Shown: piece by piece, positions 1-11,609 of the stretch | Layout of the letters: every line of letters begins with the position of its first letter | How positions within the stretch are numbered: position 1 is the first letter of the stretch | Position numbers and translations under genes: made by a program | Notes under the pieces: generated by a model | Told to the model about the DNA's origin: nothing | Databases searched by the model: none | Seen by the model: the letters and a program-made list of their open reading frames with translations, nothing else | Origin: a virus | Taxonomy: Duplodnaviria; Heunggongvirae; Uroviricota; Caudoviricetes | Length of the DNA stretch: 11,609 nt | IMG/VR virus record: IMGVR_UViG_2802429218_000006 | Coordinates: 1-11,609 of that record | Strand: one strand, 5' to 3'

Positions 1-12
1 GATCTTCCGCCA
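1..12 (+). tRNA. selC: 3'-terminal fragment of tRNA-Sec gene (selC): acceptor 3' strand, discriminator and CCA; also the attL core. The gene body lies upstream of the window
   Basis: GATCTTCCGCCA matches the 3' end of E. coli selC as I recall it (..GGTTCGACTCCTGTGATCTTCCGCCA). The upstream part of that sequence is duplicated at the window end. Confidence 0.55.
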
Positions 13-123
13 AACAGCATCCAGCCAGTTCCGAGATACTCCATAAAACCCTTTATATTCAATACGATGAATAATCGGTTTGTCCGTAATAGTCCGAGAT
101 AATCTCCCTGAATCCGCGAAAAA

Positions 124-143
124 TATGTATAGTAATGTGTATA
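124..143. promoter_or_regulatory. Candidate integrase arm-type binding sites (tandem TATGTATA / ATGTGTATA) in the int promoter region
   Basis: The same tandem motif pair recurs at 11517-11536 on the other side of the att core. An inverted copy (TTATACAC, 167-174) overlaps the int start codon. Confidence 0.4.
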
Positions 144-174
144 GATTTTTTATACGTAGTTTTCAGTTATACAC

Positions 175-1362
175 ATGGCTCTAACCGATATACAGATCAA
201 ACGTGCAAAACCACAAGACAAACCATACACATTGAACGATGGACAAGGTCTGTCATTGCTTATCAATCCCGATGGCTCGAAAGGCTGGCGTTTCCGTTTC
301 CGGTTTGCAGGGAAAGCGCGGTTAATGTCATTTGGCAGCTACGATTTAGTAAGCCTTGCAGAAGCACGTGAGAAGCGTGACGTCGCCCGTAAGCAGGTTG
401 CGAATGGCATTGATCCTGTAGAGGAACGCAAAGCTTCAAGACTCGCTCAAAAGCTATCAACAGAAAATTCTTTCGAAGCCATATGTCGAGAATGGCATAC
501 CAACAGAGCTGACCGCTGGACAGTGGCCTATCGAGAAGAAATCATTAAGACATTCGAGCAAGATGTGTTCCCGTTCATTGGTAAACGCCCTATCAGTGAA
601 ATCAAACCATTGGAACTGCTTGAGGTATTGCGACGAATAGAGAAGCGTGGCGCATTAGAGAAGACAAGAAAAGTACGTCAAAGATGCGGTGAGGTATTTC
701 GTTATGCAATCGTAACTGGCCGAGCTGATTACAATCCAGCACCTGATTTAGCTATCGCGCTGGCCGTACCCAAGCAAAAACATTATCCGTTCTTATCCGC
801 AGAAGAGTTACCTCATTTTATTCGAGATCTGGAGGCATATACCGGCAGTATCATTACTAAAAATGCTACAAAGATAGTTATGCTAACTGGTGTTCGAACA
901 AAAGAGATGCGCTTTGCTACATGGGATGAGATTGACCTTGAGAAGGGGATATGGGAAATCCCAGCCGAAAGGATGAAAATGCGCAGACCTCACATAGTGC
1001 CGCTTTCTACTCAGGTAATCGACCTTTTCAAGCAACTCAAGCCGATTACTGGTCACTACCCTTATATTTTTATTGGCAGGAACAACCGTAGTAAACCGAT
1101 CTCAAAAGAAAGTGTGTCACAGGTAATTGAGTTACTAGGTTACAAAGGACGTGCTACCGGTCACGGTTTTAGACATACAATGTCGACAATTTTACATGAA
1201 CAGGGATTTGATAGTGCTTGGATTGAAATTCAGTTAGCCCATGTAGATAAAAATAGTATTCGAGGTACTTATAATCATGCTCAATATCTTGATAATCGGA
1301 GAAATATGATGCAGTGGTATGCGCAGCATATATATGGAAAAGTTATACAAGAGTCTAAATAA
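175..1362 (+). CDS. int: P4-family tyrosine integrase
   Basis: 395-aa ORF with an N-terminal arm-binding-like region, then a catalytic core showing box I Arg (LTGVRTKE), HGFRH (His-x-x-Arg) and a C-terminal Tyr (IRGTYNHAQY). Sits immediately next to the selC-derived att core. Confidence 0.9.
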   Translation: MALTDIQIKRAKPQDKPYTLNDGQGLSLLINPDGSKGWRFRFRFAGKARLMSFGSYDLVSLAEAREKRDVARKQVANGIDPVEERKASRLAQKLSTENSFEAICREWHTNRADRWTVAYREEIIKTFEQDVFPFIGKRPISEIKPLELLEVLRRIEKRGALEKTRKVRQRCGEVFRYAIVTGRADYNPAPDLAIALAVPKQKHYPFLSAEELPHFIRDLEAYTGSIITKNATKIVMLTGVRTKEMRFATWDEIDLEKGIWEIPAERMKMRRPHIVPLSTQVIDLFKQLKPITGHYPYIFIGRNNRSKPISKESVSQVIELLGYKGRATGHGFRHTMSTILHEQGFDSAWIEIQLAHVDKNSIRGTYNHAQYLDNRRNMMQWYAQHIYGKVIQESK

Positions 1363-1402
1363 ATTACTCATGAAGAAATATAGTCAATTATTAGGATGAA
1401 AT

Positions 1403-3058
1403 ATGATTAGTGCAAAAAACATTCTTTTCAGCAGTCGACATACTGATGCTGATGTAACTTTACATATCAATAATGTTATAAGATACCCCAAAAAATATAT
1501 GAATAATCATATCTATATATTAGATATAGACATGTATATTCAGACTGAAGACATGAAAAATCAAGCATATATAGATAATGACATTAGAAGCCCCCTGAAA
1601 ATGCTATTTATTGGAGAGGAACTAACAGAGTCAACTTTATTTGACTTATTATCCCAATCAGAAATATCGCTTCATGAAGTTAAGGTTAAATATGAATTTG
1701 ATTATATCTGTCAGATGTCAGAAGATGGATATAGATACATCAACAATAAATTAGAAACAGTCGCTTCATTATCTTTACTTAGAGCTATTAAGGATTTTGG
1801 TGTAAACTACAATATTATAAGAAACAAATCCTTTCTAAAAAAATATTCAGACAAGATATTCTCTACGTTATTACTAGATAACACTTTCAGTTCTTATGCC
1901 TTTGAAAATGGCTATAAATATTTTAATGTCGATGATGGTGCCGTTTACCAATTACAGCCCCCAACAAAATTTATTATTTATGACGAAGAAAAACAGCCGT
2001 ATAAACTTAAGATGGAGAGTCTGTTAAATATTAATATACCTATTCATGCACTAATTGGTAAGAATGGTAGCGGGAAAACCTATTTAATTAATAAAATAAT
2101 CAAACAATCTATTTCAACTGACCTAGAAATAAGATCTTCTGGCGCAGTTTTTAGTCGAATGATAGTTTTATCAAATACAATAAATGATAAGTGCTATAGA
2201 CCGGCAAATATAACCAAAAACAAATTCAAGTTAAATAACTATCATTTTGTATCGTTAACATCAGAAAAATATTATAATAAGCTTTTCCCACGAGGGAAAA
2301 AGCTAACTCTATTTTCTTTATTAGAAAAAATACAGAAACGAGATTCTAATAAGCGAGGTAACTTTGAACAGGGGGATTTGCTTGATAGAGTTACTCAAGA
2401 TATTATTCCCGAGTTTTCTTTTTCCATTAAAACAAATCTTGGGGAGCATATTTACAATAGTTTTTTAGAGTTAACTAGACAATATGGATTAGTTAATTTA
2501 AACTCAAACTTAGACTTAATTACGAGTTCAGAAATCGAATATGCATTACCTGATGAAGATATCCATTTCTATAAAAATAATGAACCCTTTACCTTAAGCT
2601 CAGGGCAATTATCTTTTTTAGTTAGCATGTTTTCTCTAATCTCAACAATAGAGAGTAATAGTCTTATACTTATAGAGGAACCAGAAAATTTTTTACACCC
2701 AAGTTTATTAACACATTTTATAAACTCACTAACACACATTCTAAGAGATACTAATTCTATCGCAATTATGGCCACCCACTCTGCTTTGGTACTTAGAGAA
2801 ATCCCTTCAGCACAAATAACAATCCTACATAGAAGAGACAATATCACCAACTATAAAACACCGAATATTGAAACATTTGGTGCCGATACTCATCAAATAA
2901 TGATAGACGTTTTTGGTGATTTATACTCTAATGCGATATTTAGAGAAGAGCTATCAAACATTGCAAAAAACAAAACAATCGATGAATTATTAGTGCAGTA
3001 TGGTGATTTACCTTCTGATGTATTAAATAAAATCATCATGGAGAAAAATTCAAAGTGA
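1403..3058 (+). CDS. ABC-type (SMC-head-like) ATPase with a ~200-aa N-terminal extension of unknown function; first gene of the candidate defence cassette
   Basis: Walker A GKNGSGKT (aa 219-226, nt 2057-2080); ABC signature LSSGQ (aa 398-402); Walker B LILIEEPENFLHP (aa 421-433, nt 2663-); H-loop ATHS (aa 457-460). Shine-Dalgarno AGGA lies 7 nt upstream of the ATG. Strongly AT-rich codon usage unlike the backbone. Confidence 0.85.
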   Translation: MISAKNILFSSRHTDADVTLHINNVIRYPKKYMNNHIYILDIDMYIQTEDMKNQAYIDNDIRSPLKMLFIGEELTESTLFDLLSQSEISLHEVKVKYEFDYICQMSEDGYRYINNKLETVASLSLLRAIKDFGVNYNIIRNKSFLKKYSDKIFSTLLLDNTFSSYAFENGYKYFNVDDGAVYQLQPPTKFIIYDEEKQPYKLKMESLLNINIPIHALIGKNGSGKTYLINKIIKQSISTDLEIRSSGAVFSRMIVLSNTINDKCYRPANITKNKFKLNNYHFVSLTSEKYYNKLFPRGKKLTLFSLLEKIQKRDSNKRGNFEQGDLLDRVTQDIIPEFSFSIKTNLGEHIYNSFLELTRQYGLVNLNSNLDLITSSEIEYALPDEDIHFYKNNEPFTLSSGQLSFLVSMFSLISTIESNSLILIEEPENFLHPSLLTHFINSLTHILRDTNSIAIMATHSALVLREIPSAQITILHRRDNITNYKTPNIETFGADTHQIMIDVFGDLYSNAIFREELSNIAKNKTIDELLVQYGDLPSDVLNKIIMEKNSK

Positions 3059-3954
3059 GAATTTTATCTAAGCCAGAGGGTATTGATGATCTACTTAATA
3101 ATATAGATCTTAACTCATCTATTGATGCCTTTTTATCGCTCGATGAACCGACTGGAATTGCTGACTTAAGAAATAAAAAAAATGATCTCTTGAACGAAAT
3201 TGAGAATTATCACACTGAGATGATTGAACGAGGTCATTTATCACATAACACGAGAAAAAACTTCTCAAAATATAAATCCATACTTGAGTGGATTTATTAT
3301 CACCCAAGTCAGCGAAGAAAAACAGACTACATAAACTCGATACGAAAACTTTACGCCCAAAGTGGAACTCTATGTCCTTACTGTGGGGTTTCTCCTTGCA
3401 GGACATTAGACCATTACTACAACAAAGCTTTATTACCACAGTTTTCATTTCTTCCTGAAAACCTTATTCCGTGCTGTGGTGATTGTAATAGAGACAAGGG
3501 AGCAAAAAAAGCCTTTAGCAAATGGAGAAGATTTGTCAATCCATTCTATGATGATTTCTCATCGTTAGAAAAAAATGAACCTCTCATATATATAATTTTC
3601 AAAGAAAGACCAAGATCTAGAATTGACATGGAATATGTAATGACAGCCAATCATAATCTAGACTTTTTAATAAGAAAACAAATAAACTATCACATTAGAA
3701 CAGTAAGAATCCCTTTCTATCATCATGAAGCCATAAGCAATTCATTTTGGAGAAACGCGAAAGACCTAATAAAGTTTAAAAAATTAGTCACTGACGGTGA
3801 TATAGATAATACAATTTATGATAAAATCATTGATGGTTTCATAGGCAAAAACAATGCTATGAATTATGACTGGGAATATATTATTAGATATTCATTAGTC
3901 AAACTTCGTATTAATCACTGGATTTATAACAGCAACCTACCAAAATTAATGTAG
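3055..3954 (+). CDS. HNH endonuclease-domain protein; second gene of the candidate defence cassette
   Basis: Zinc-finger HNH core CPYCG..LDHYY..N..CCGDCNRDKG (aa 107-148, nt 3373-3498) flanked by ~100-aa N-terminal and ~150-aa C-terminal regions of unknown function. GTG start at 3055 overlaps the TGA stop of the ATPase (GTGA), indicating translational coupling. Same AT-rich composition as the ATPase gene. Confidence 0.85.
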   Translation: MRILSKPEGIDDLLNNIDLNSSIDAFLSLDEPTGIADLRNKKNDLLNEIENYHTEMIERGHLSHNTRKNFSKYKSILEWIYYHPSQRRKTDYINSIRKLYAQSGTLCPYCGVSPCRTLDHYYNKALLPQFSFLPENLIPCCGDCNRDKGAKKAFSKWRRFVNPFYDDFSSLEKNEPLIYIIFKERPRSRIDMEYVMTANHNLDFLIRKQINYHIRTVRIPFYHHEAISNSFWRNAKDLIKFKKLVTDGDIDNTIYDKIIDGFIGKNNAMNYDWEYIIRYSLVKLRINHWIYNSNLPKLM

Positions 3955-4144
3955 CTCCAAAGAATGCATTAGCCTTGATGGTATATTTCAGTAGCATTGA
4001 GGCTAGTGTAAGGCCTAACTGGCAGGTAGCATCGAACAAAATACAAGCGCATTTATTAATTCTCAATTAGGTTGTTTAAAAATGATTCGAAAATATTTCA
4101 CCTGCTTAGGAGAAAAGAAAAAACATTTATCACTGCCACGCGCA

Positions 4145-4163
4145 GTGCTTTCCCCGCCTCGCC
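4145..4163. other. cos site: 19-nt cohesive end of P2/P4 type
   Basis: Plus strand reads GTGCTTTCCCCGCCTCGCC, the reverse complement of GGCGAGGCGGGGAAAGCAC (the P2/P4 cohesive end as I recall it). Flanked by GC-rich hairpins at 4160-4230. Lies between the cargo and psu, as in P4. Confidence 0.8.
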
Positions 4164-4264
4164 CGCCCGCTTTGCGGGGCAGTTTTAATGCAGTTTCACT
4201 GACACGCTCAGGCCGCGCCGGGAATGGCGCGGTCTGCAGAAAATGAGGCAGGAAAACGCATGCA

Positions 4265-4297
4265 AAGCCATGCACCTTATCGATGCATGGCTTTTTT
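4265..4297 (+). terminator. Rho-independent terminator-like hairpin (10-bp perfect stem plus T6) between cos and psu
   Basis: AAGCCATGCA (4265-4274), 9-nt loop, TGCATGGCTT (4284-4293), then a T-run to 4297. The T-tail is on the plus strand, so it would stop transcripts coming from the cargo or cos side. Confidence 0.55.
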
Positions 4298-4327
4298 CAG
4301 TAAAATCGGACGGATTTTCGGGGAGTT

Positions 4328-4900
4328 TTACACAGACTGACATGATGCCAGTTGCGCACTTTTACGCGAAAAAATCATGTTCTGCGCAGGGGTGAATTTT
4401 TCACGGCTGTCATCCACCGAAGCCGCGTCAGGCCTGAATCCGATGGTCGTTAAAATGTCGCTATCCTGTGCGGAATAATTAATTTTTTCACCCTTTGCAA
4501 GCCAGGACAGAAGGGCTTCACGCAGGGCATCTGTGGCACGCTGTATGGCACAGTTTCGGGCAATGGCCGTCAGCTCACTGTAGCCCATCAGCTCCGGTGC
4601 CAGTGCCGCCGCCAGTGCTGTGCCGTGCTGCTGCATAAAATCATTCAGCCGGTCGCGGATGCTGATGTGCTGAACGGCTTCATGCGAACGAATATAACGA
4701 CCGGCGGCCTGATTCACCTGCCATTTTCTGACTTCGATAATATTGCGTAATTCGTCCAGGCGACTGACGTTTCTGCCTTCCCCGGACAGAAGCCGCAGAT
4801 ATTCCTGTTCGGCCGCAGCCAGCTCATTTTTGCGTTGCAGCCATGCTGCTTTGTTATTCTGACAGGTGTCAAAGGCCTGCTGTAAGGCTGTGCTTTCCAT
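4328..4900 (-). CDS. psu: Polarity suppression protein Psu (capsid decoration / Rho antagonist)
   Basis: 190-aa ORF, the same length as P4 Psu, in the P4 position as last gene of the sid-delta-psu operon next to cos. N-terminus MESTALQQAFDT... matches my recollection of P4 Psu. Confidence 0.85.
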   Translation of the reverse strand: MESTALQQAFDTCQNNKAAWLQRKNELAAAEQEYLRLLSGEGRNVSRLDELRNIIEVRKWQVNQAAGRYIRSHEAVQHISIRDRLNDFMQQHGTALAAALAPELMGYSELTAIARNCAIQRATDALREALLSWLAKGEKINYSAQDSDILTTIGFRPDAASVDDSREKFTPAQNMIFSRKSAQLASCQSV

Positions 4901-4973
4901 CGTTATCTCTTTCTCATCATGCTGAAGAATAAAAATACGGTGTGCGGCGACGGCCGGTGTTAACCGGCAGCCC

Positions 4974-5474
4974 TCATTCCAGACGCAGCGAATATGATTG
5001 TGTTTTTAAGCGTACTGGCGGCAGTTCCTGTTTTTCATGCAGGCTTTCTGCCAGTTCGTCCGGCGTGACCGGGCGGACAATGAAACGGTTGATGGTCTGA
5101 AGCGTTTTAAACACCAGACCACAGCCCGGATCCGTGCACACATAAAAACGCTCGGTGACTTCCTGAGACAGACGCCGCGATGTTCTTGACAGTGCAAGGC
5201 CTTTACATCTCCGACAACAATATCCGGTAACAAGCATTCTTTTCGGGCGTTTCATGCTACCGGAGGCTGACGTCAGTGAATCGCGGTATCTCTGTTTGCC
5301 TGAAATGTATTCCATTCCTGAATCTTTACAGTCAGAGAAAAAGCTTTCACTCGCTTCAAATGTCGCAGAGCAATAAATATTCCGGCACTGTGCAATCATT
5401 ATCTTGGTGCCATCGTCCATGAAATGTGCGCGACGGGTGTGAGCAACATGTCCACACGACGGGCAGTAAATCAT
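4974..5474 (-). CDS. delta: Delta, a tandem Ogr-type zinc-finger late transcription activator
   Basis: 166 aa (the P4 Delta length). The N-terminal half follows the P2 Ogr pattern (CPSCGH.AH.R..DGTK...C.N..CSATF) and a second Cys4 module sits in the C-terminal half (CCRRC...CTDPGCG). Its start overlaps the sid stop (ATGA). Confidence 0.9.
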   Translation of the reverse strand: MIYCPSCGHVAHTRRAHFMDDGTKIMIAQCRNIYCSATFEASESFFSDCKDSGMEYISGKQRYRDSLTSASGSMKRPKRMLVTGYCCRRCKGLALSRTSRRLSQEVTERFYVCTDPGCGLVFKTLQTINRFIVRPVTPDELAESLHEKQELPPVRLKTQSYSLRLE

Positions 5475-6205
5475 GACAGCAGTCCTCTGGCCTTAAGCTC
5501 TGCTCCCTGCTGGTCTATTTTGTCCTGCCACACCTTGCGCTGTGCCGGTGTGCCTGCCACCTCATAATCCATGTGCGGGAGTGTTGCCGCTGACAGTCCG
5601 GTCAGCCGGAGAACCGGCTCGCCGGTGAGGCTGATTTGCATCTGTTTAATTTTCTGTTCCAGCGATGATTTCACCTGCTGCATGACAGCCTTTTCCGGTG
5701 CGACGTAGCCCTGATGGCCGGTGGTGTTGGCGAGCGGATTTTCCTGTACCAGTATGCTCAGATGCATTGCCCGGACAAGCGCCTCACAGGTTTCATTCAG
5801 GGCGTGTTCCAGCTCATTCTCTGCATACAGACTCAGAAGGTGATGATGTGCCTTCCGGTAGGCGGTGGCCGTGCTGTCACACGCCCCTTTCAGGCGTTCA
5901 CGTTCAAAATTCAGCACCACGGCCAGATTGTCATATTCCTGTACCAGCTCCCGGCGTGCCACGCGCTCAATGTGGCGCTGTTTCAGCTCGTCGCTCAGGA
6001 CACCACCGGCTGCACGAAAGGCCGTGCGCCAGTCGTCAGCGTCGTTTCCGTCGGCCTGCGCCAGCGCATTTTTTTCCTGCTCTGCCCGTTCAATGGCCGT
6101 GACGGTCTCATCCATCAGGCGGGCGTTCTCAAGATGGGCGGCTCTGGCCTTTTCCAGTTGTGCCAGCGCGGGTTGCAGATATTCAGGGATGGTGTTGTCA
6201 GACAT
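5471..6205 (-). CDS. sid: Sid external scaffold / capsid size-determination protein
   Basis: The ATG at 6205 with a GAGGAG Shine-Dalgarno gives 244 aa, the P4 Sid length. The ORF track extends to a GTG at 6223 (250 aa), which I consider less likely. First gene of the late operon. Confidence 0.8.
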   Translation of the reverse strand: MSDNTIPEYLQPALAQLEKARAAHLENARLMDETVTAIERAEQEKNALAQADGNDADDWRTAFRAAGGVLSDELKQRHIERVARRELVQEYDNLAVVLNFERERLKGACDSTATAYRKAHHHLLSLYAENELEHALNETCEALVRAMHLSILVQENPLANTTGHQGYVAPEKAVMQQVKSSLEQKIKQMQISLTGEPVLRLTGLSAATLPHMDYEVAGTPAQRKVWQDKIDQQGAELKARGLLS

Positions 6206-6239
6206 TTTCCGGCTCCTCGTCACTTCAGGTTAAGAAAAT

Positions 6240-6295
6240 TGTGACGTACACCGGACAACAACACGACGCATTGCAGATGTGCCAGCCCTGACACA
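6240..6295. promoter_or_regulatory. Late-promoter region with two TGT-N12-ACA dyads: candidate Delta/Ogr binding sites for the divergent Psid and PLL promoters
   Basis: TGT(6240-6242)-N12-ACA(6255-6257) and TGT(6278-6280)-N12-ACA(6293-6295). The second is centred about 55 bp upstream of a plausible sid transcription start near 6230. The motif is short, so chance occurrence is possible. Confidence 0.4.
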
Positions 6296-6374
6296 GGAGA
6301 CTCATCCTCAGACCGGCAAGCCAGGAAAAGGTCGCAGGAAAAACCGGCTTACTGTTTGTTTTTTTATGTTTTAC

Positions 6375-6478
6375 TGTTCACCTCTGTTCACCATAAGAAA
6401 AAAGATAAGTAATACAGTAAGTTAAAGGGTGAGCAATCGCAGTAATGACTGTTCACCGTCTGTTCACCACTGTTCACC
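6375..6478. repeat. ori-like iteron cluster: five copies of the TGTTCACC octamer (type I iterons, alpha-binding), followed by an AT-rich stretch (6479-6570)
   Basis: TGTTCACC at 6375-6382, 6385-6392, 6450-6457, 6461-6468 and 6471-6478. The same octamer is reiterated in crr downstream of alpha, about 4.8 kb away. Confidence 0.75.
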
Positions 6479-6756
6479 CGTTCATGGACTTTTTGTGCTG
6501 TGTATTACTTTTTATTTTTATTAATTAACTGAAATAAATAAGAAAAAACAATTTGTATTTCACTATAATTTTTTCCAGCTCCTTCCAGAGCGTTTTAAAG
6601 CTATCTGGCGCTGATGTGCAAAAAACACACAGCAATTGTAAGGCTGCCGGAACAAATCCCCCCTGTTGCGTCTGCTGAAAATATTCACAAAATAAAGCGC
6701 TACCCGAAGCCGGACGGACTTATCCGGTGCTGTATGGACATTAACGAGGTAGCCCG

Positions 6757-7023
6757 ATGCAAGCTGTTTTTTCTTCCCCGTCTCCTGCCCCTGTGACGCC
6801 ACTGATGCCGCTGCCGGACATCACGCAGGAGCGTTTTTTACGTCTGCCGGAAGTGATGCACCTGTGCGGCCTGTCACGCTCGACCATCTACGAACTCATC
6901 CGTAAGGGGGAATTTCCGCCGCAGGTGAGTCTTGGCGGTAAAAATGTGGCCTGGCTGCACTCTGAAGTCACCGCATGGATGGCCGGGCGCATTGCCGGAC
7001 GCAAACGGGGGTACGACGCATGA
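6757..7023 (+). CDS. vis: Vis / AlpA-family helix-turn-helix regulator (excision and late-gene control)
   Basis: 88 aa (the size of P4 orf88/vis) with an AlpA-like HTH segment ([28 protein letters not shown]). GAGG Shine-Dalgarno 8 nt upstream. First gene of the plus-strand left operon. Confidence 0.75.
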
Positions 7024-7574
7024 TGATGCCTGTTCTGCAAAAACTCCCTTTTTCTGGCTTGCCTTTTTCCGGCATTTGCGGATATAGTTTTTCCGCTGTC
7101 GCAAAATCGGCAGCCGGGCGTAGGAACCCGAGTTACTTCAAGGCGACATATGACGCGCCATGCGTCTTTTTTTACGTCGTTGCTTCGGCACACCTGTTTT
7201 TCTGGCTGTGGTTTTTAAACCGTAGCCTCTGTCAGATAATGGTGGTCCGGGCGGGGCAGCCTTCGGGCTGGCCGGTTTCCTTGAAGGCCGGTATTCCTAC
7301 CCCCGTCCGGGCTACCACCCATGAGCGTAGGAACTCCAGTGGTAGCTGTAACTGTTACTTCAAGGAGGCTGCCATCATGGCTACAACCCTTACCCCCTCA
7401 CACCCTGAATTTGTCTTTGTGTTTGCGGCTGTCCGTCGCGCAGACCGTCATCCCCGTATCTGCATGCTTCGCACCGTCGCCGGTGATGAACGCAGCGCCC
7501 GCCGTTCCCTTGTCCGTGACTATGTGCTCTCCCTTGCTGCCCGTCTGCCGGTGGTGGAGGTGTCCCGTGCGTAA
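6975..7574 (+). CDS. Possible eta-like ORF (199 codons) that reads through the immunity-RNA region, with the kil-like ORF nested in the same frame
   Basis: A 600-nt open frame starting inside vis, upstream of the PLE-like promoter, and spanning the structured RNA region. Consistent with the nested kil/eta arrangement described for P4, but the protein is low-complexity and could be an artefact of GC-rich sequence. Confidence 0.3.
7059..7088 (+). promoter_or_regulatory. Candidate sigma-70 promoter (PLE-like) driving the immunity / left operon
   Basis: TTGCCT (7059-7064), 18-bp spacer, TATAGT (7083-7088), about 30 bp upstream of seqA. Confidence 0.45.
7118..7143 (+). promoter_or_regulatory. seqA-like target site for the immunity RNA
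   Basis: GCGTAGGAAC..TTACTTCAAGG. The two blocks are complementary to CCTTGAAG (7279-7286) and TTCCTAC (7294-7300) inside the structured RNA. Confidence 0.55.
7241..7320 (+). ncRNA. cI: CI-like immunity RNA (P4-type antisense RNA carrying seqB); boundaries approximate
   Basis: Highly structured segment: GGTGGTCCGGGCGGGG pairs with CCCCGTCCGGGCTACCACC (one G-T wobble and a 3-nt bulge), plus an internal CAGCC-TTCG-GGCTG hairpin. The internal seqB blocks are complementary to both flanking seqA and seqC. Confidence 0.5.
7325..7365 (+). promoter_or_regulatory. seqC-like target site overlapping the ribosome-binding site of the kil-like ORF
   Basis: GCGTAGGAAC (7325-7334) and TTACTTCAAGG (7355-7365) repeat the two seqA blocks. 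The second block runs straight into the AGGAGG Shine-Dalgarno of the ORF starting at 7377. Confidence 0.55.
7377..7574 (+). CDS. Small kil-like protein (65 aa); resembles the Ash/Icd-like small proteins of P4-type prophages
   Basis: Strong AGGAGG Shine-Dalgarno 8 nt upstream of the ATG. First ORF after the immunity RNA. Sequence [25 protein letters not shown]... Confidence 0.55.
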
Positions 7575-7854
7575 TAAAAAAGCCCCTCAGACCGTCTCAG
7601 CGCGTCATGACGCCCGTGAACACCTCAGCATTGAGGCTTACCATAAGCTCAACCGCGCCAGCGCCGTATCCCAGTTTGTTGGGGGTGATTTGATTCACCG
7701 TGAACTCTCCGGCCTGCATCAGCTCTACATTCCGCATATTTTCAGTTACCTGAATGAAGATATTGATTTTGTGCTGAATGAACTGAAAGCCAAAGGCCTG
7801 TGCCGCGATTTTCTCGCCCAGCAGAAAGACCGGGGAGACAGGACGCATGTTTGA
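7567..7854 (+). CDS. Epsilon-sized small protein (95 aa) with a GTG start; position and size match P4 epsilon, the derepression protein
   Basis: No in-frame ATG exists. The GTG at 7567 is preceded by GGAGG at 6-nt spacing and overlaps the stop of the kil-like ORF. Product length is exactly 95 aa. Identification is by synteny and size only. Confidence 0.45.
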
Positions 7855-8308
7855 TTTTCCCCAGCCCGGTGAGATTTACCGTTCTGCCGGTTTTCCCGAT
7901 GTGGCCGTGGTCGGCATTCTGGAAGACGGTATTCCGTGGGAAATGCCGTACCGCTGCCCGGACATTGTCTGGAACCCGTACCGCCGTAAATTCAGTATCC
8001 TTGTGCGTATCCTCGCTGACGGGCGCACCACAGACATCCCGCTGGGGCGTTTTCTGCGGGAATTTACCTGTGACCGTCCTGACCTGTTCAAACGCAGCCC
8101 CGTAAACCGGCATGCGGTACTGAAAGAAATGGCCGGAGACCCGGAATTACAGAAATGGCGGGAGAAATATCTGGATATTTACCCGCAGGACCCTGTTCCG
8201 GTCAGCCGGGCGGCACCGGTGGCGCGGGAATGGCGGGAAATTCCCCGCACGGAGCCTGACCCGGCCCCCCCCCCCCGGATAACAGTTACCGCAATTATCT
8301 GTAATTAA
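7847..8308 (+). CDS. Hypothetical protein, orf151-like by position (153 aa); contains a C12 homopolymer near its 3' end
   Basis: ATG overlaps the stop of the preceding ORF (ATGTTTGA). The C12 run at 8265-8276 encodes the PAPPP segment of the product. Confidence 0.6.
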
Positions 8309-8439
8309 AAAACGACACCCGAAAAATTAAATGTGCGTATTCGCGCAGGGATACGCACGTCTTCAGGAGACGCAGATATGTCTTATCAGTTAATGCAACC
8401 GGCACGGAATGCAGTCATCTGTCACAGGGAGGAAAGCAA

Positions 8440-8760
8440 ATGAAAACACCCTTACCGCCCGTCTTACGCGCTGCCCTTTACCGTCGCGCTGTCGCCTGTG
8501 CCTGGCTGACCGTGTGCGAACGTCAGCACCGCTACCCGCATCTCACCCTTGAGTCACTGGAGGCGGCCATCGCCGCTGAGCTGGAAGGCTTTTATCTGCG
8601 CCAGCACGGTGAGGAAAAAGGGCGCCAGATAGCCTGTGCCCTGCTGGAAGATTTAATGGAATCCGGCCCCCTGAAGGCCGCGCCGTCGCTGTCCTTTCTC
8701 GGGCTGGTTGTGATGGATGAACTCTGTGCCCGTCACATAAAAGCGCCGGTACTGCACTGA
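8440..8760 (+). CDS. cnr: cnr-sized protein (106 aa); copy-number-control candidate
   Basis: GGGAGG Shine-Dalgarno. 106 aa equals P4 cnr (orf106), and it lies immediately upstream of alpha as in P4. Identification is by synteny and size only. Confidence 0.5.
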
Positions 8761-8774
8761 AGGAGAACAACACC

Positions 8775-11108
8775 ATGAAAATGAACGTAACCGCCACCGT
8801 CAGCCATGCGCTCGGCCACTGGCCGCGTATTCTCCCGGCGCTGGGGATTCAGGTGCTGAAAAACCGTCATCAGCCCTGTCCGGTCTGTGGCGGGAGTGAC
8901 CGCTTCCGTTTTGATGACAGGGAGGGGCGCGGCACCTGGTACTGCAATCAGTGTGGTGCCGGTGACGGCCTGAAACTGGTTGAAAAGGTGTTTGGTGTTT
9001 CCCCGTCCGACGCGGCCGCAAAGGTGGCTGCCGTGACCGGCAGTCTGCCACCGGCTGACCCGGCAGTGACGGCTGCCGCCGGTGCTGAAACAGACGCTGC
9101 CCGGAAGAACGCCGCCGCACTGGCACAAACCCTGATGGCGAAAACCTGTCCCGGAACCGGTAACGCCTACCTGACCCGCAAGGGCTTTCCCGGCCGGGAA
9201 TGCCGGATGCTGACCGGCACACACAGAGCCGGTGGCGTGAGCTGGCGCGCCGGTGACCTTGTGGTGCCACTGTATGACGACAGCGGCGAACTGGTTAACC
9301 TTCAGTTAATCAGTGCTGACGGCCGTAAGCGCACCCTGAAAGGCGGACAGGTCAGGGGCACCTGTCACACCTTTGAAGGACAGAATCAGGCCGGAAAACG
9401 TCTGTGGATAGCGGAGGGATACGCGACCGCACTTACCGTGCATCACCTGACCGGTGAAACGGTGATGGTGGCGCTTTCTTCCGTGAATCTCCTTTCTCTG
9501 GCCAGCCTTGCCCGGCAGAAGCATCCGGCCTGTCAGATTGTCCTTGCCGCAGACCGTGACCTCAGCGGTGACGGCCAGAAAAAAGCCGCCGCAGCCGCAG
9601 ATGCGTGTGAAGGTGTTGTTGCCCTGCCGCCGGTCTTCGGTGACTGGAATGATGCCTTCACGCAGTACGGCGGGGAAGCCACCCGTAAGGCCATTTATGA
9701 TGCCATCCGGCCACCGGCTGAAAGCCCGTTCGACACCATGAGCGAAGCGGAGTTTTCCGCCATGAGTACCAGCGAAAAGGCCATGCGTATCTATGAGCAT
9801 TACGGCGAGGCGCTCGCGGTCGATGCCAACGGCCAGCTTCTGTCCCGTTATGAAAATGGTGTCTGGAAGGTGCTGCCACCACAGGACTTTGCCCGGGATG
9901 TGGCCGGGCTGTTTCAGCGGCTGCGTGCGCCGTTCTCCTCCGGGAAGGTGGCCTCCGTGGTGGACACCCTGAAGCTGATTATTCCGCAGCAGGAAGCCCC
10001 CTCCCGCCGCCTGATTGGCTTTCGTAACGGCGTGCTCGACACGCAGAACGGCACGTTCCACCCGCACAGTCCGTCACACTGGATGCGCACCCTGTGCGAT
10101 GTGGATTTCACCCCGCCGGTGGAAGGGGAAACGCTGGAAACCCACGCCCCCGCGTTCTGGCGCTGGCTTGACCGTGCCGCCGGTGGCCGTGCGGAAAAAC
10201 GCGACGTGATTCTGGCCGCACTGTTTATGGTGCTGGCAAACCGCTACGACTGGCAGCTCTTTCTGGAGGTGACCGGTCCCGGCGGCAGCGGCAAAAGTAT
10301 CATGGCCGAAATAGCCACCCTGCTGGCCGGGGAGGATAACGCCACGTCGGCCACCATCGAGACGCTGGAATCCCCGCGTGAACGTGCCGCGTTAACTGGC
10401 TTCTCACTGATACGCCTGCCGGACCAGGAAAAATGGAGCGGCGACGGTGCCGGACTCAAGGCCATCACCGGCGGCGATGCGGTGTCCGTTGACCCGAAAT
10501 ACCGGGATGCATACTCCACGCATATCCCGGCGGTAATTCTGGCCGTGAACAATAACCCGATGCGCTTCACCGACCGCAGCGGCGGCGTGTCACGCCGGCG
10601 GGTGATTATTCACTTCCCGGAACAGATAGCCCCGCAGGAGCGCGACCCGCAGCTTAAGGACAAAATCACCCGCGAGCTGGCGGTCATCGTGCGTCACCTG
10701 ATGCAGAAGTTCAGCGACCCGATGCTCGCCCGGTCACTGCTTCAGTCCCAGCAGAACTCAGACGAGGCACTGAACATCAAACGGGATGCCGACCCGACGT
10801 TTGATTTTATCGGCTATCTGGAAACCCTGCCGCAGACCAGCGGCATGTATATGGGGAACGCCAGTATCATCCCGCGTAATTACCGTAAATACCTCTATCA
10901 CGCCTATCTGGCCTACATGGAGGCAAACGGCTACCGGAATGTACTCAGTCTGAAAATGTTCGGGCTGGGGCTGCCGGTGATGCTGAAGGAATACGGACTG
11001 AATTACGAGAAGCGCCATACCAAACAGGGGATACAGACCAACCTGACGCTGAAAGAGGAAAGCTACGGCGACTGGCTGCCAAAATGTGACGACCCTGCAA
11101 CAACCTGA
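8775..11108 (+). CDS. alpha: Alpha primase-helicase replication protein
   Basis: 777 aa (the P4 alpha length). N-terminal zinc-ribbon primase motif CPVCGGSDRFRFDD..WYCNQCG, a TOPRIM-like region, and a C-terminal helicase Walker A GPGGSGKS. AGGAG Shine-Dalgarno upstream. Confidence 0.92.
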   Translation: MKMNVTATVSHALGHWPRILPALGIQVLKNRHQPCPVCGGSDRFRFDDREGRGTWYCNQCGAGDGLKLVEKVFGVSPSDAAAKVAAVTGSLPPADPAVTAAAGAETDAARKNAAALAQTLMAKTCPGTGNAYLTRKGFPGRECRMLTGTHRAGGVSWRAGDLVVPLYDDSGELVNLQLISADGRKRTLKGGQVRGTCHTFEGQNQAGKRLWIAEGYATALTVHHLTGETVMVALSSVNLLSLASLARQKHPACQIVLAADRDLSGDGQKKAAAAADACEGVVALPPVFGDWNDAFTQYGGEATRKAIYDAIRPPAESPFDTMSEAEFSAMSTSEKAMRIYEHYGEALAVDANGQLLSRYENGVWKVLPPQDFARDVAGLFQRLRAPFSSGKVASVVDTLKLIIPQQEAPSRRLIGFRNGVLDTQNGTFHPHSPSHWMRTLCDVDFTPPVEGETLETHAPAFWRWLDRAAGGRAEKRDVILAALFMVLANRYDWQLFLEVTGPGGSGKSIMAEIATLLAGEDNATSATIETLESPRERAALTGFSLIRLPDQEKWSGDGAGLKAITGGDAVSVDPKYRDAYSTHIPAVILAVNNNPMRFTDRSGGVSRRRVIIHFPEQIAPQERDPQLKDKITRELAVIVRHLMQKFSDPMLARSLLQSQQNSDEALNIKRDADPTFDFIGYLETLPQTSGMYMGNASIIPRNYRKYLYHAYLAYMEANGYRNVLSLKMFGLGLPVMLKEYGLNYEKRHTKQGIQTNLTLKEESYGDWLPKCDDPATT

Positions 11109-11124
11109 CCATCATGACTCATCT

Positions 11125-11149
11125 GACCGGCATCTGCCGGTCTTTTTTT
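11125..11149 (+). terminator. Rho-independent terminator downstream of alpha
   Basis: GACCGGC (11125-11131), loop ATCT, GCCGGTC (11136-11142), then T7 (11143-11149): a perfect 7-bp stem. Confidence 0.8.
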
Positions 11150-11166
11150 ATCCCTGAATTCCCCGA

Positions 11167-11468
11167 AGGTGAACAATCCACTGTTCACCCTTCACCGTAT
11201 ATTCACTCGTTATCACACTGAAATTAAAAGAGAAAAACGAAAGGTGAACAGTGTGAACAATCAAATCAAAAAAAACTTTTTTTCTCCCTGTGTGATTTCA
11301 GTACGGGGGATTAATCACCGGTATGAGTCACACCGGCAGAATGCCGGAGGTGAAGAATCGAATGTTCACCCTTCACCCATTATTCACTACCTATCATACT
11401 GAAATAAAAGGAGAAAAAAGAAAGGTGAACAGTGTGAACAGTTCTTTCGAAAAAAAATTTTTTTCCTG
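11167..11468. repeat. crr (cis replication region): two ~121-bp direct repeats (11167-11287 and 11348-11468, period 181 bp), each carrying TGTTCACC / GGTGAACA iterons and ending in an A8/T8 tract
   Basis: The repeats align along their whole length with a few substitutions. Iterons at 11168-11175, 11182-11189 and 11243-11250, plus the equivalent positions in the second copy. Confidence 0.8.
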
Positions 11469-11516
11469 AGTTAACGTGCGTGAAGATACGTGTAAAAATT
11501 AATCGATAGATATTAT

Positions 11517-11536
11517 ATGTATAAGGATGTGTATAA
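11517..11536. promoter_or_regulatory. Candidate integrase arm-type binding sites (ATGTATAA / ATGTGTATAA) on the attR side
   Basis: Same tandem motif pair as at 124-143 on the attL/int side. Confidence 0.4.
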
Positions 11537-11593
11537 ATGAATTATAATAGAAAAATATAAACGATTTGAATCAAATGGTTATATGGCAATTTT

Positions 11594-11609
11594 GACTCCT
11601 GTGATCTTC
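11594..11609. repeat. attR core: direct repeat of the selC 3' end (GACTCCTGTGATCTTC, truncated by the window edge)
   Basis: Matches the selC segment immediately 5' of the bases at window positions 1-12. The T at 11593 where selC has C marks the edge of identity. Confidence 0.6.

Follow-up and report, generated by a model that had tools for sequence, protein, structure and literature searches.

An AT-rich cargo arm beside cos in a selC-integrated P4-like satellite carries a candidate Septu-like gene pair

Introduction

P4-like satellites carry a hotspot between int and psu, beside cos, whose diverse content includes Septu-type systems (Rousset 2022, PMC9122126; NAR 2026, PMC13586616), and this slot has been experimentally established as a defence hotspot (PMC9122126). 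Here, we analyzed a stretch of 11,609 nucleotides from a Caudoviricetes record of IMG/VR (IMGVR_UViG_2802429218_000006, positions 1 to 11,609), hereafter the window, which is a P4-like satellite prophage integrated at selC. Next to its integrase gene int lies an AT-rich island with two open reading frames (ORFs), orfA and orfB. This island is the published defence hotspot of P4-like satellites. It occupies the same position between int and psu, abuts cos and shows the same combination of a near-identical backbone with strain-variable known or candidate anti-phage content, Septu included.

The literature already covers the hotspot with its position next to cos, its varied content and its Septu-type systems, and by itself the window is a textbook case of swappable anti-phage systems beside cos in P4 satellites. 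A keyword search of the main text of PMC9122126 and PMC13586616 found no mention of base composition or breakpoints, and the 2026 study leaves int out of its core-genome comparisons. Three features of the present locus were not found reported for the hotspot in these two papers, namely the linkage between the int 3' end and the cargo, a 14-codon cassette-specific int tail and an asymmetry around cos. Together with a uniform AT-richness of the cargoes, the linkage and the tail may be unreported details that refine the known picture.

The best Protein Data Bank (PDB) sequence and fold matches of OrfA and OrfB are PtuA and PtuB of Septu, including those of retron Ec78/Eco7. Like Septu, OrfA-OrfB is a two-gene operon with overlapping genes. 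OrfA resembles PtuA as an ABC/SMC-like ATPase with Walker A, signature, Walker B and H-loop motifs, and OrfB resembles PtuB as an HNH protein with the arrangement CxxC...DH...N...CxxCN. The pair also departs from these systems. OrfA has an extra N-terminal domain of about 200 aa before Walker A, and OrfB is 299 aa long, with an added helical C-terminal half, compared to about 215 aa for PtuB. Unlike the PtuAB of Ec78/Eco7, the pair has no reverse transcriptase or msr/msd nearby, and PADLOC files it apart from Septu, under the separate candidate PDC-M01.

The reference P4 genome (NC_001609) likewise holds its accessory genes in a terminal arm beside cos, and this arm is AT-rich as well, with a G+C content of 0.359 versus 0.53-0.61. 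The arm of P4 consists of a leuX-type int of 440 aa with the non-essential gop, beta and cII region, whereas that of the window combines a selC-type int of 395 aa with the PtuAB-like pair. From the evidence below, we hold with good confidence that the island is the accessory cargo arm of a selC P4-like satellite with a Septu-like pair and that its compositional bias is maintained; exchange of the arm through cos and a crossover is proposed at about even odds.

Results and Discussion

Base composition of the island

G+C content was computed for each feature of the window. Region 1363-4144 has a G+C content of 0.309, compared to 0.561 for the backbone (4145-11108), which places the island 25 points under the backbone, with a deficit at all three codon positions. 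The two cargo genes are at 0.297 (orfA, 1403-3058; codon positions 0.357/0.283/0.252) and 0.322 (orfB, 3055-3954; third codon position, GC3, 0.290). Among the backbone genes, psu reaches 0.529, delta 0.489, sid 0.579 and alpha 0.608. The integrase gene has an overall value of 0.431, made up of 0.456 at nt 175-1000 and 0.373 at nt 1001-1362; the drop in G+C begins about 200-350 nt inside int, upstream of its stop codon. At the protein level, FYMINK residues account for 40% of OrfA and OrfB versus 18-22% of Psu, Sid and Alpha.

Positions 1-6200 were segmented by maximum likelihood with two change points, and the edges fell at 1166 and 4130. Because this model gains about 140 nats of log-likelihood over a single composition, the AT-rich island is far beyond chance. 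Outside the cargo, two minor AT-rich dips correspond to iteron regions of P4, namely ori1 at 6301-6750 and crr at 11109-11609.

An earlier description of this DNA, made from its letters and hereafter called the original prediction, had proposed a sharp AT-rich island in a P4-like satellite backbone at selC, with cargo genes under 35% G+C and an int of intermediate composition. All of this is borne out. The backbone is identified by Pfam matches, cos, 97% identity to P4 and the tRNA-Sec gene, and sliding-window G+C separates the cargo (1403-3954) from the rest of the element. The claim that psu-delta-sid and alpha lie above 50% G+C is correct for psu, sid and alpha but not for delta, at 48.9%.

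Distribution of the cassette and alternative cargoes

The window was compared by megablast with 5,426 complete E. coli genomes. Matches, through the backbone, were obtained in 2,865 of them, while at least 80% of the window was covered in only six. The variable block at 1321-4138 is present in exactly those six genomes, at 99.5% identity, and no copy of the cassette was found in plasmid and phage collections, even at blastn sensitivity. The adjoining backbone flank, 4139-4684, is at least 95% identical in 1,083 records.

Ten elements whose backbones match that of the window at 96-98% identity hold other cargoes in the same slot. These are a retron-type reverse transcriptase (RT) with SLATT, a dCTP deaminase, GapS4a/b, a P-loop NTPase, a hypothetical protein and kinase pair, AIPR, an ATP-binding protein, an AAA ATPase, Drt4, and SIR2 with an ATPase. 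The int and psu flanks are conserved among these related elements and the cargo differs, and the junctions are common to them. The placement of the AT-rich block in the variable hotspot of P4, as originally predicted, is upheld by this comparison. The opposite outcome, the same cassette in all related satellites, is at odds with a cargo confined to six genomes. In one of the six carriers, NZ_CP076645, IS5-like (ISKpn26) and IS66-family insertions lie in or beside the element, making the locus about 3.9 kb longer.

Low G+C in orthologues and alternative cargoes

Low G+C is a feature of the slot beyond this cassette. The ten alternative cargoes range from 0.309 to 0.350, and the gop-beta-cII arm of P4 is at 0.359. 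To place OrfA and OrfB themselves, homologue contexts were taken from exact look-ups of named homologues in place of a GTDB genome scan with the OrfA alignment, which was swamped by generic ABC motifs (IGKNGSGK, IEEPEN), gave remote Bacteroidota/Firmicutes ATPases only and was uninformative on origin. Homologues of OrfA and OrfB at 35-99% amino acid identity are all in Enterobacterales, Aeromonas or Rheinheimera, and every orthologue found sits in gammaproteobacteria with flanks of 46-66% G+C. In K. quasipneumoniae, C. braakii, C. koseri, C. youngae and Serratia, the pair occupies the int-A-B-cos/psu/delta slot of P4-like elements that sit at varied chromosomal sites. It is free-standing in Aeromonas hydrophila, and its neighbours in Rheinheimera are a large DUF4011 helicase, a ParE/RelB pair and an IS element. 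Of the eight contexts of relatives that were examined, six are this P4 slot, and the family has therefore diversified inside P4-like satellites.

The orthologous pairs have a G+C content of 0.296-0.346 and a GC3 of 0.24-0.32, compared to a GC3 of 0.48-0.91 in neighbouring host genes. At 4-fold degenerate sites of conserved residues, third-base identity to the window is 0.23-0.44 in five orthologues below 70% amino acid identity, with 0.30-0.36 for those of Citrobacter braakii, Serratia and Aeromonas, which indicates saturation of synonymous sites. Despite this saturation, orthologue composition shows no drift toward the host. By the standard amelioration argument, genes that are AT-rich at saturated sites whatever the host carry a bias that is maintained rather than freshly imported. 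Low G+C is then best read from these alignments as a maintained property of the slot's cargo class and not as a fresh donor signature. It could be maintained by selection, for example, through xenogeneic H-NS-type silencing of a toxic nuclease. Alternatively, a mutational or transfer regime specific to mobile elements could maintain it.

The original prediction had instead taken the composition as the mark of a low-GC donor. Under that explanation, the cassette was imported recently, for example, from Firmicutes or Bacteroidota, and its composition is unameliorated. The 25-point deficit at all three codon positions is what such an import would leave. PDC-M01 systems have been reported from the Bacillus cereus group and from one Streptococcaceae genome (PMC11811056 among the sources), and Bacteroidota and Clostridia contain very distant relatives of the ATPase (partial matches, 23-37% identity). 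However, the close relatives are all gammaproteobacterial and stay AT-rich at saturated synonymous sites next to host genes with GC3 up to 0.91. Most of the contexts examined are the P4 slot, and the other slot cargoes share the AT bias with gop-beta-cII of P4. We therefore consider a recent low-GC import unlikely, and this part of the original prediction was not borne out.

AT-richness is uniform across unrelated hotspot systems and, for OrfA-OrfB, also across host G+C and deep divergence. Inferring a foreign donor from base composition is therefore unreliable for defence islands. The same uniformity points to selection for low G+C itself or to a mechanism that maintains it.

Two of the Citrobacter loci have additional neighbours. 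In Citrobacter youngae (locus L025, 4097-5849), a CBASS-like pair (CD-NTase and Cap15) lies directly upstream of the P4-like integrase, and therefore defence genes flank the satellite on its chromosomal side too. In Citrobacter koseri (L026, 13723-17656), the P4-like element with the orthologous cargo is truncated after alpA and abuts Mom/Com genes together with tail-fibre and baseplate genes of another prophage.

Junctions and int 3' alleles

The two edges of the cargo behave differently. On the right, blastn homology resumes at 4135-4139 in all ten elements with other cargoes, with the junction 6 nt from the cos 19-mer (4145-4163). These elements are unrelated to the window up to 4138 and then 94-100% identical from the first 100-nt bin, and psu-delta-sid shows the same 94-100% identity from the first 100 nt past the junction. 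On the left, homology to selC-type elements with other cargoes ends at 1319-1323. The end at 1320 falls after ...MMQWY, at int residue 382. By this alignment, the last 14 int codons are part of the cassette, and the int tail, 7-13 residues long, differs from one cargo type to the next.

Upstream of this point, int is homologous but diverged. Compared to eight selC-type elements with other cargoes, identity is 0.97-1.00 at nt 101-300 in most and falls to about 0.80 at nt 801-1300. Between cargo types, the int 3' alleles are 13-18% diverged, and nine of them form a star-like set with pairwise identities of 0.82-0.87. Within 775-1320, 38% of codons differ only synonymously and 7.5% alter the amino acid. 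Across the 5,426 genomes, the only ones with this segment at 99% identity or more are the six cassette carriers; the closest other match is 84.4%, and nothing falls at 90-99%. GapS4 provided a replicate, with the cargo in 31 genomes and its own int 3' allele at 99% or more in the same 31 (next best 87.4%), although many of these carriers are clonal (O145:H28), and 31 of 31 overstates the number of independent events. A Klebsiella element with orthologous cargo extends the pattern across genera: it is 0.927 identical to the window over int 1075-1320, 0.893 over orfA and 0.862 over orfB, compared to 0.81-0.84 over upstream int and 0.68 over psu.

The original prediction had set the exchange points at the int stop codon (1362) and near cos (about 4140). 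The cos side stands, with homology resuming at 4136-4139. The int side has to be revised, since homology ends at 1320 and the int 3' region is cargo-linked. Because the int 3' half is itself linked to the cargo, the real crossovers would lie further 5' in int or beyond.

Comparison of whole arms points in the same direction. Backbones like that of the window are also joined to an ssrA-type int with SIR2 and ATPase cargo (NZ_CP122832, locus L028) and, in P4, to a leuX-type int with gop-beta-cII. L028 (1913-5992) is 97-98% identical to the window from cos on. It is integrated at ssrA and carries an unrelated integrase with SIR2/ATP-binding cargo at a G+C content of 0.309. As these alignments read, the whole int and cargo arm was exchanged on one backbone.

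In the P4 annotation, the cos-cut linear genome runs cos, accessory genes, int, attP, crr, alpha ... sid, delta, psu, cos. The cargo is a terminal segment because of this order. One edge of a swap would then be fixed at cos, where cohesive ends are cut and rejoined, and the other would be set by a single homologous crossover anywhere in int, att or alpha. Joining of variants through their cohesive ends, or recombinogenic cos ends, which Rousset et al. raised as a speculation (PMC9122126), would yield a recombinant with one cos junction and one variable junction. Such a model would account for the undiverged flank on the cos side and for whole-arm replacements. It would also account for the halo of divergence and the linkage on the int side, with each cargo dragging along its own int 3' allele. 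With int 3' alleles about 15% diverged, crossovers near the cargo would become rarer still, preserving the linkage. On present evidence, we see this combination of cos joining and a single crossover as evenly poised between being right and wrong.

A more specific account is that the unit of exchange is the terminal arm, comprising cos, the cargo and at least the int 3' end, that the int 3' alleles are old and private to their cargoes and that a uniform G+C content of about 30-35% is actively maintained, for example for H-NS-type silencing of toxic effectors, rather than inherited from donors. A halo of divergence on the int side would be typical of a long-maintained (balanced) polymorphism. 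We put this account forward tentatively, as a possibility that falls short of probable.

The one-sided halo and the linkage between int 3' alleles and cargo offer testable support for the cos-end recombination idea of Rousset et al. The exclusion of int from core-genome comparisons hides the part of the backbone that co-evolves with the cargo. If true, terminal-arm exchange would give a mechanistic reason for phage and satellite defence hotspots beside cos, and a one-sided halo next to an AT island would serve as a sequence signature for finding such hotspots.

A different explanation of the junctions is a cassette-like insertion or replacement, site-specific or illegitimate, exactly at both compositional edges and without involvement of int recombination. 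The junctions are identical in all ten other elements (1319-1323 and 4135-4139), a short GCGCAG motif occurs at both junctions of the window and illegitimate recombination has been considered for exchanges between unrelated elements (PMC13586616). However, no flanking repeats are common to the different cargoes, and no recombinase or transposase is encoded in block 1321-4138. The int 3' half is perfectly cargo-linked and 13-18% diverged, which a precise swap at 1320 would not give, and whole int and cargo arms differ on identical backbones. An insertion confined to these edges is accordingly improbable. The GCGCAG hexamer was considered as a recombination site and rejected, as it is missing at the left junction of other cargoes and is put down to chance.

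The OrfA-OrfB pair

OrfA was matched best by the PADLOC model PDC-M01A (1.5e-48), followed by the PtuA model PDLC00282 (1.3e-36 over residues 106-535), and it matches Pfam AAA_21 at 1.8e-12. It contains Walker A GKNGSGKT at 219-226, the signature LSSGQ at 398-402, Walker B and D-loop LILIEEPENFLHP and the H-loop THS at 458-460. Key residues of these motifs are invariant across 22 homologues. The region of about 200 aa ahead of the ATPase has no Pfam match. A profile of the OrfA family reaches 3e-6 to 2e-4 against PDB PtuA chains, which come from structures of retron Ec78 and of E. coli Septu.

The GTG start of orfB overlaps the stop codon of orfA (GTGA), and the two genes share 4 nt. OrfB was matched best by PDC-M01B (7.1e-27); the PADLOC PtuB model was not among the matches listed for it, all of which are PDC-M01B or PDC-M62B. 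Neither OrfB nor any OrfB homologue found has a confident Pfam family, and the RefSeq product name is 'HNH endonuclease'. The HNH residues C107-P-Y-C110, D119-H120, N136, C141, C144-N145 and K148 are invariant in 28 homologues. An AlphaFold (AF2) model of OrfB (pLDDT 88, pTM 0.83) was compared to PDB structures with Foldseek, and the top eight matches were all PtuB (probability 0.38-1.00, at least 0.9 in six of eight; E 0.006-0.28; TM 0.33-0.46). The OrfB sequence profile matched PtuB at E 0.005. Single-sequence phmmer searches of the PDB gave only marginal PtuA and PtuB matches; profiles and a fold search were required for those given above.

The pair belongs to PADLOC candidate PDC-M01, with adjacent genes and the A and B models best for each protein, and PDC-M01 calls overlap Septu calls (PMC11811056). 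OrfA-OrfB is probably a Septu-like two-gene operon that works like Septu. By analogy with solved Septu and retron complexes, an ATPase oligomer would hold and license the nuclease. Once infection is sensed, the nuclease would cut nucleic acid and abort phage growth. The cassette appears to be a rare Septu-like variant already present in public catalogues. The OrfB accession of a 99%-identical carrier, WP_097292093, is present in Table S1A of Rousset 2022 by its domains only (PMC9122126). A peptide search of that paper's supplementary sequence tables, which covered them in part, gave no match to OrfA or OrfB in the system groups listed there. Contig NZ_PTMY01000008 of the same Table S1A shows orfA split in annotation or an extra gene. 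The retron-associated PtuAB (type I-A, Ec78/Eco7) was also considered as an identity for the pair and rejected: there is no RT among the two int-cos ORFs, Rfam gave no msr/msd and the NCBIfam cutoffs were missed.

Several points weigh against the interpretation favoured here. The exchange mechanism is drawn from polymorphism in a small sample, comprising three BLAST censuses and an alignment of about a dozen elements, in which many carriers are clonal, for example those of GapS4, and a sharp junction is expected by any mechanism wherever unrelated DNA abuts a conserved essential site. The wider family may have an ancient low-GC origin, with PDC-M01/Septu-type systems also found in low-GC Firmicutes. 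The similarity to validated PtuA and PtuB is remote, given the low Foldseek TM values, and the NCBIfam models scored 36.7 bits against a cutoff of 500 (PtuA, NF041760) and 20.7 against 150 (PtuB, NF041761). PDC-M01 is an unpublished PADLOC candidate, and phage defence by the cassette is putative. In addition, a scan of 1100-4400 detected no promoter for orfA and gave fewer promoter-like sites than shuffles.

It is doubtful that the two ORFs serve another accessory function, such as a restriction-like or addiction module for satellite maintenance or helper exploitation: the defence role is assigned by homology, OrfB is without a Pfam family and the genes that P4 has in the slot, gop, beta and cII, are not annotated as classical defence genes in the reference, but both proteins strongly match PADLOC defence-candidate models, the nearest solved structures are Septu and retron PtuA/PtuB, the slot is an experimentally established defence hotspot (PMC9122126) and the Rheinheimera orthologue adjoins the DUF4011 helicase, ParE/RelB pair and IS element described above.

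In carrier NZ_CP063349 (locus L001, 4553), the RefSeq start of orfA lies 50 codons downstream of the start used here and gives a protein of 501 aa. The 551-aa start is supported by M1, I7 and L20, which are conserved in 22 homologues, and by AGGA 6 nt ahead of the ATG at 1403. Judged from these residues, the RefSeq start is probably too late. Downstream of the pair, the Klebsiella element can still be aligned (74%) with the non-coding tail (3955-4138). This tail contains a long hairpin 11 nt past the orfB stop (Table 1), which has no U-tract; the z-score of the whole segment (3950-4140) is -1.9. A consensus scan of 1100-4400 called no terminator on the + strand, this hairpin included.

Satellite backbone

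The core genes int, psu, delta, sid, alpA, ash/epsilon and alpha are present in P4 order, and this set is backed by the RefSeq annotation of near-identical loci. In addition to the matches in Table 1, Pfam identified Phage_ASH, the epsilon 'derepression' protein and a Delta with a double Ogr domain. Over 7.3 kb, from 4164, the end of the linear P4 genome, to 11463, the start of crr, the window shares 97% identity with NC_001609, and its cos 19-mer equals nt 1-19 of that reference. DNA homology to NC_001609 is absent in the cargo-int-att arm left of cos and beyond crr, which is the far limit of homology to P4. The two crr repeats are about 81% identical, are spaced 59 nt apart and carry TGTTCACC iterons.

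Table 1. Positions, strands and supporting evidence of features in the window
Feature	Positions	Strand	Evidence
3' end of tRNA-Sec (selC), attL side of prophage	1..12	+	tRNA-Sec layout in relatives
int, tyrosine integrase, 395 aa	175..1362	+	Pfam Arm-DNA-bind_3, Phage_int_M, Phage_integrase
int 3' allele in complete linkage with cargo	775..1320	+	Census of 5,426 genomes
Variable non-homologous block (last 14 int codons, orfA, orfB, non-coding tail)	1321..4138	+	blastn vs ten other-cargo elements
orfA, 551-aa ABC-type ATPase, PtuA-like, PDC-M01A	1403..3058	+	PADLOC, Pfam AAA_21, motifs
orfB, 299-aa HNH nuclease (predicted), PtuB-like, PDC-M01B	3055..3954	+	PADLOC, HNH motif, fold match
Long hairpin, possible terminator or stabiliser	3965..4010	+	RNA fold of 3950-4140, ~20-bp stem
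cos cohesive-end 19-mer GGCGAGGCGGGGAAAGCAC	4145..4163	-	Exact match; 0 expected by chance
psu-delta-sid helper-exploitation operon	4328..6223	-	Pfam Psu 1e-88, Ogr_Delta; 96.8% identity to P4
ori1 type-1 iterons TGTTCACC x5	6375..6478	.	Iteron search and P4 annotation of ori type-1 repeats
isrK and C4 (P4 CI-type immunity) RNAs	7095..7322	+	Rfam RF01394 70.5 bits, RF01695 86.1 bits
alpha primase-helicase	8775..11108	+	Pfam Zn_Ribbon_Prim, Toprim_3, D5_N, Pox_D5; 97.4% identity to P4
crr, two ~120-bp direct repeats with iterons	11163..11467	.	Internal repeat ~81%; aligns to P4 crr 4291-4590

Integration at selC was read from relatives. In NZ_CP063349, the first 12 nt of the 99% match with the window are the end of the annotated tRNA-Sec, and the selC-type relatives all show the same layout. 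No exact direct repeat of at least 12 nt was found between window positions 1-200 and 11000-end as an attL/attR pair; the window probably stops short of attR.

Three further differences or overlaps were observed in the backbone. Delta of the window (4974-5474) is of the P4 double-domain type, with 166 aa and two Ogr/Delta zinc fingers, whereas the otherwise 99% identical carrier NZ_CP063349 encodes a single-domain Delta of 81 aa (L001, 7915-8160). About 5% of the window is missing from its best genome matches because of this single-domain Delta. A patch of about 58 nt at 7180-7237, between isrK (7095-7172) and C4 (7235-7322), is a break in homology to P4, to L001 and to the ssrA-type L028, while it is continuous in selC-type elements with other cargo. 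This patch may determine immunity specificity and vary independently of the cargo. Finally, a mechanically called Ash-domain ORF of 199 aa at 6975-7574 wholly contains the isrK and C4 RNA genes, and in near-identical elements the RefSeq annotation of this region is either an 'Icd-like' product of about 199 aa or an ash pseudogene together with a short Icd-like gene.

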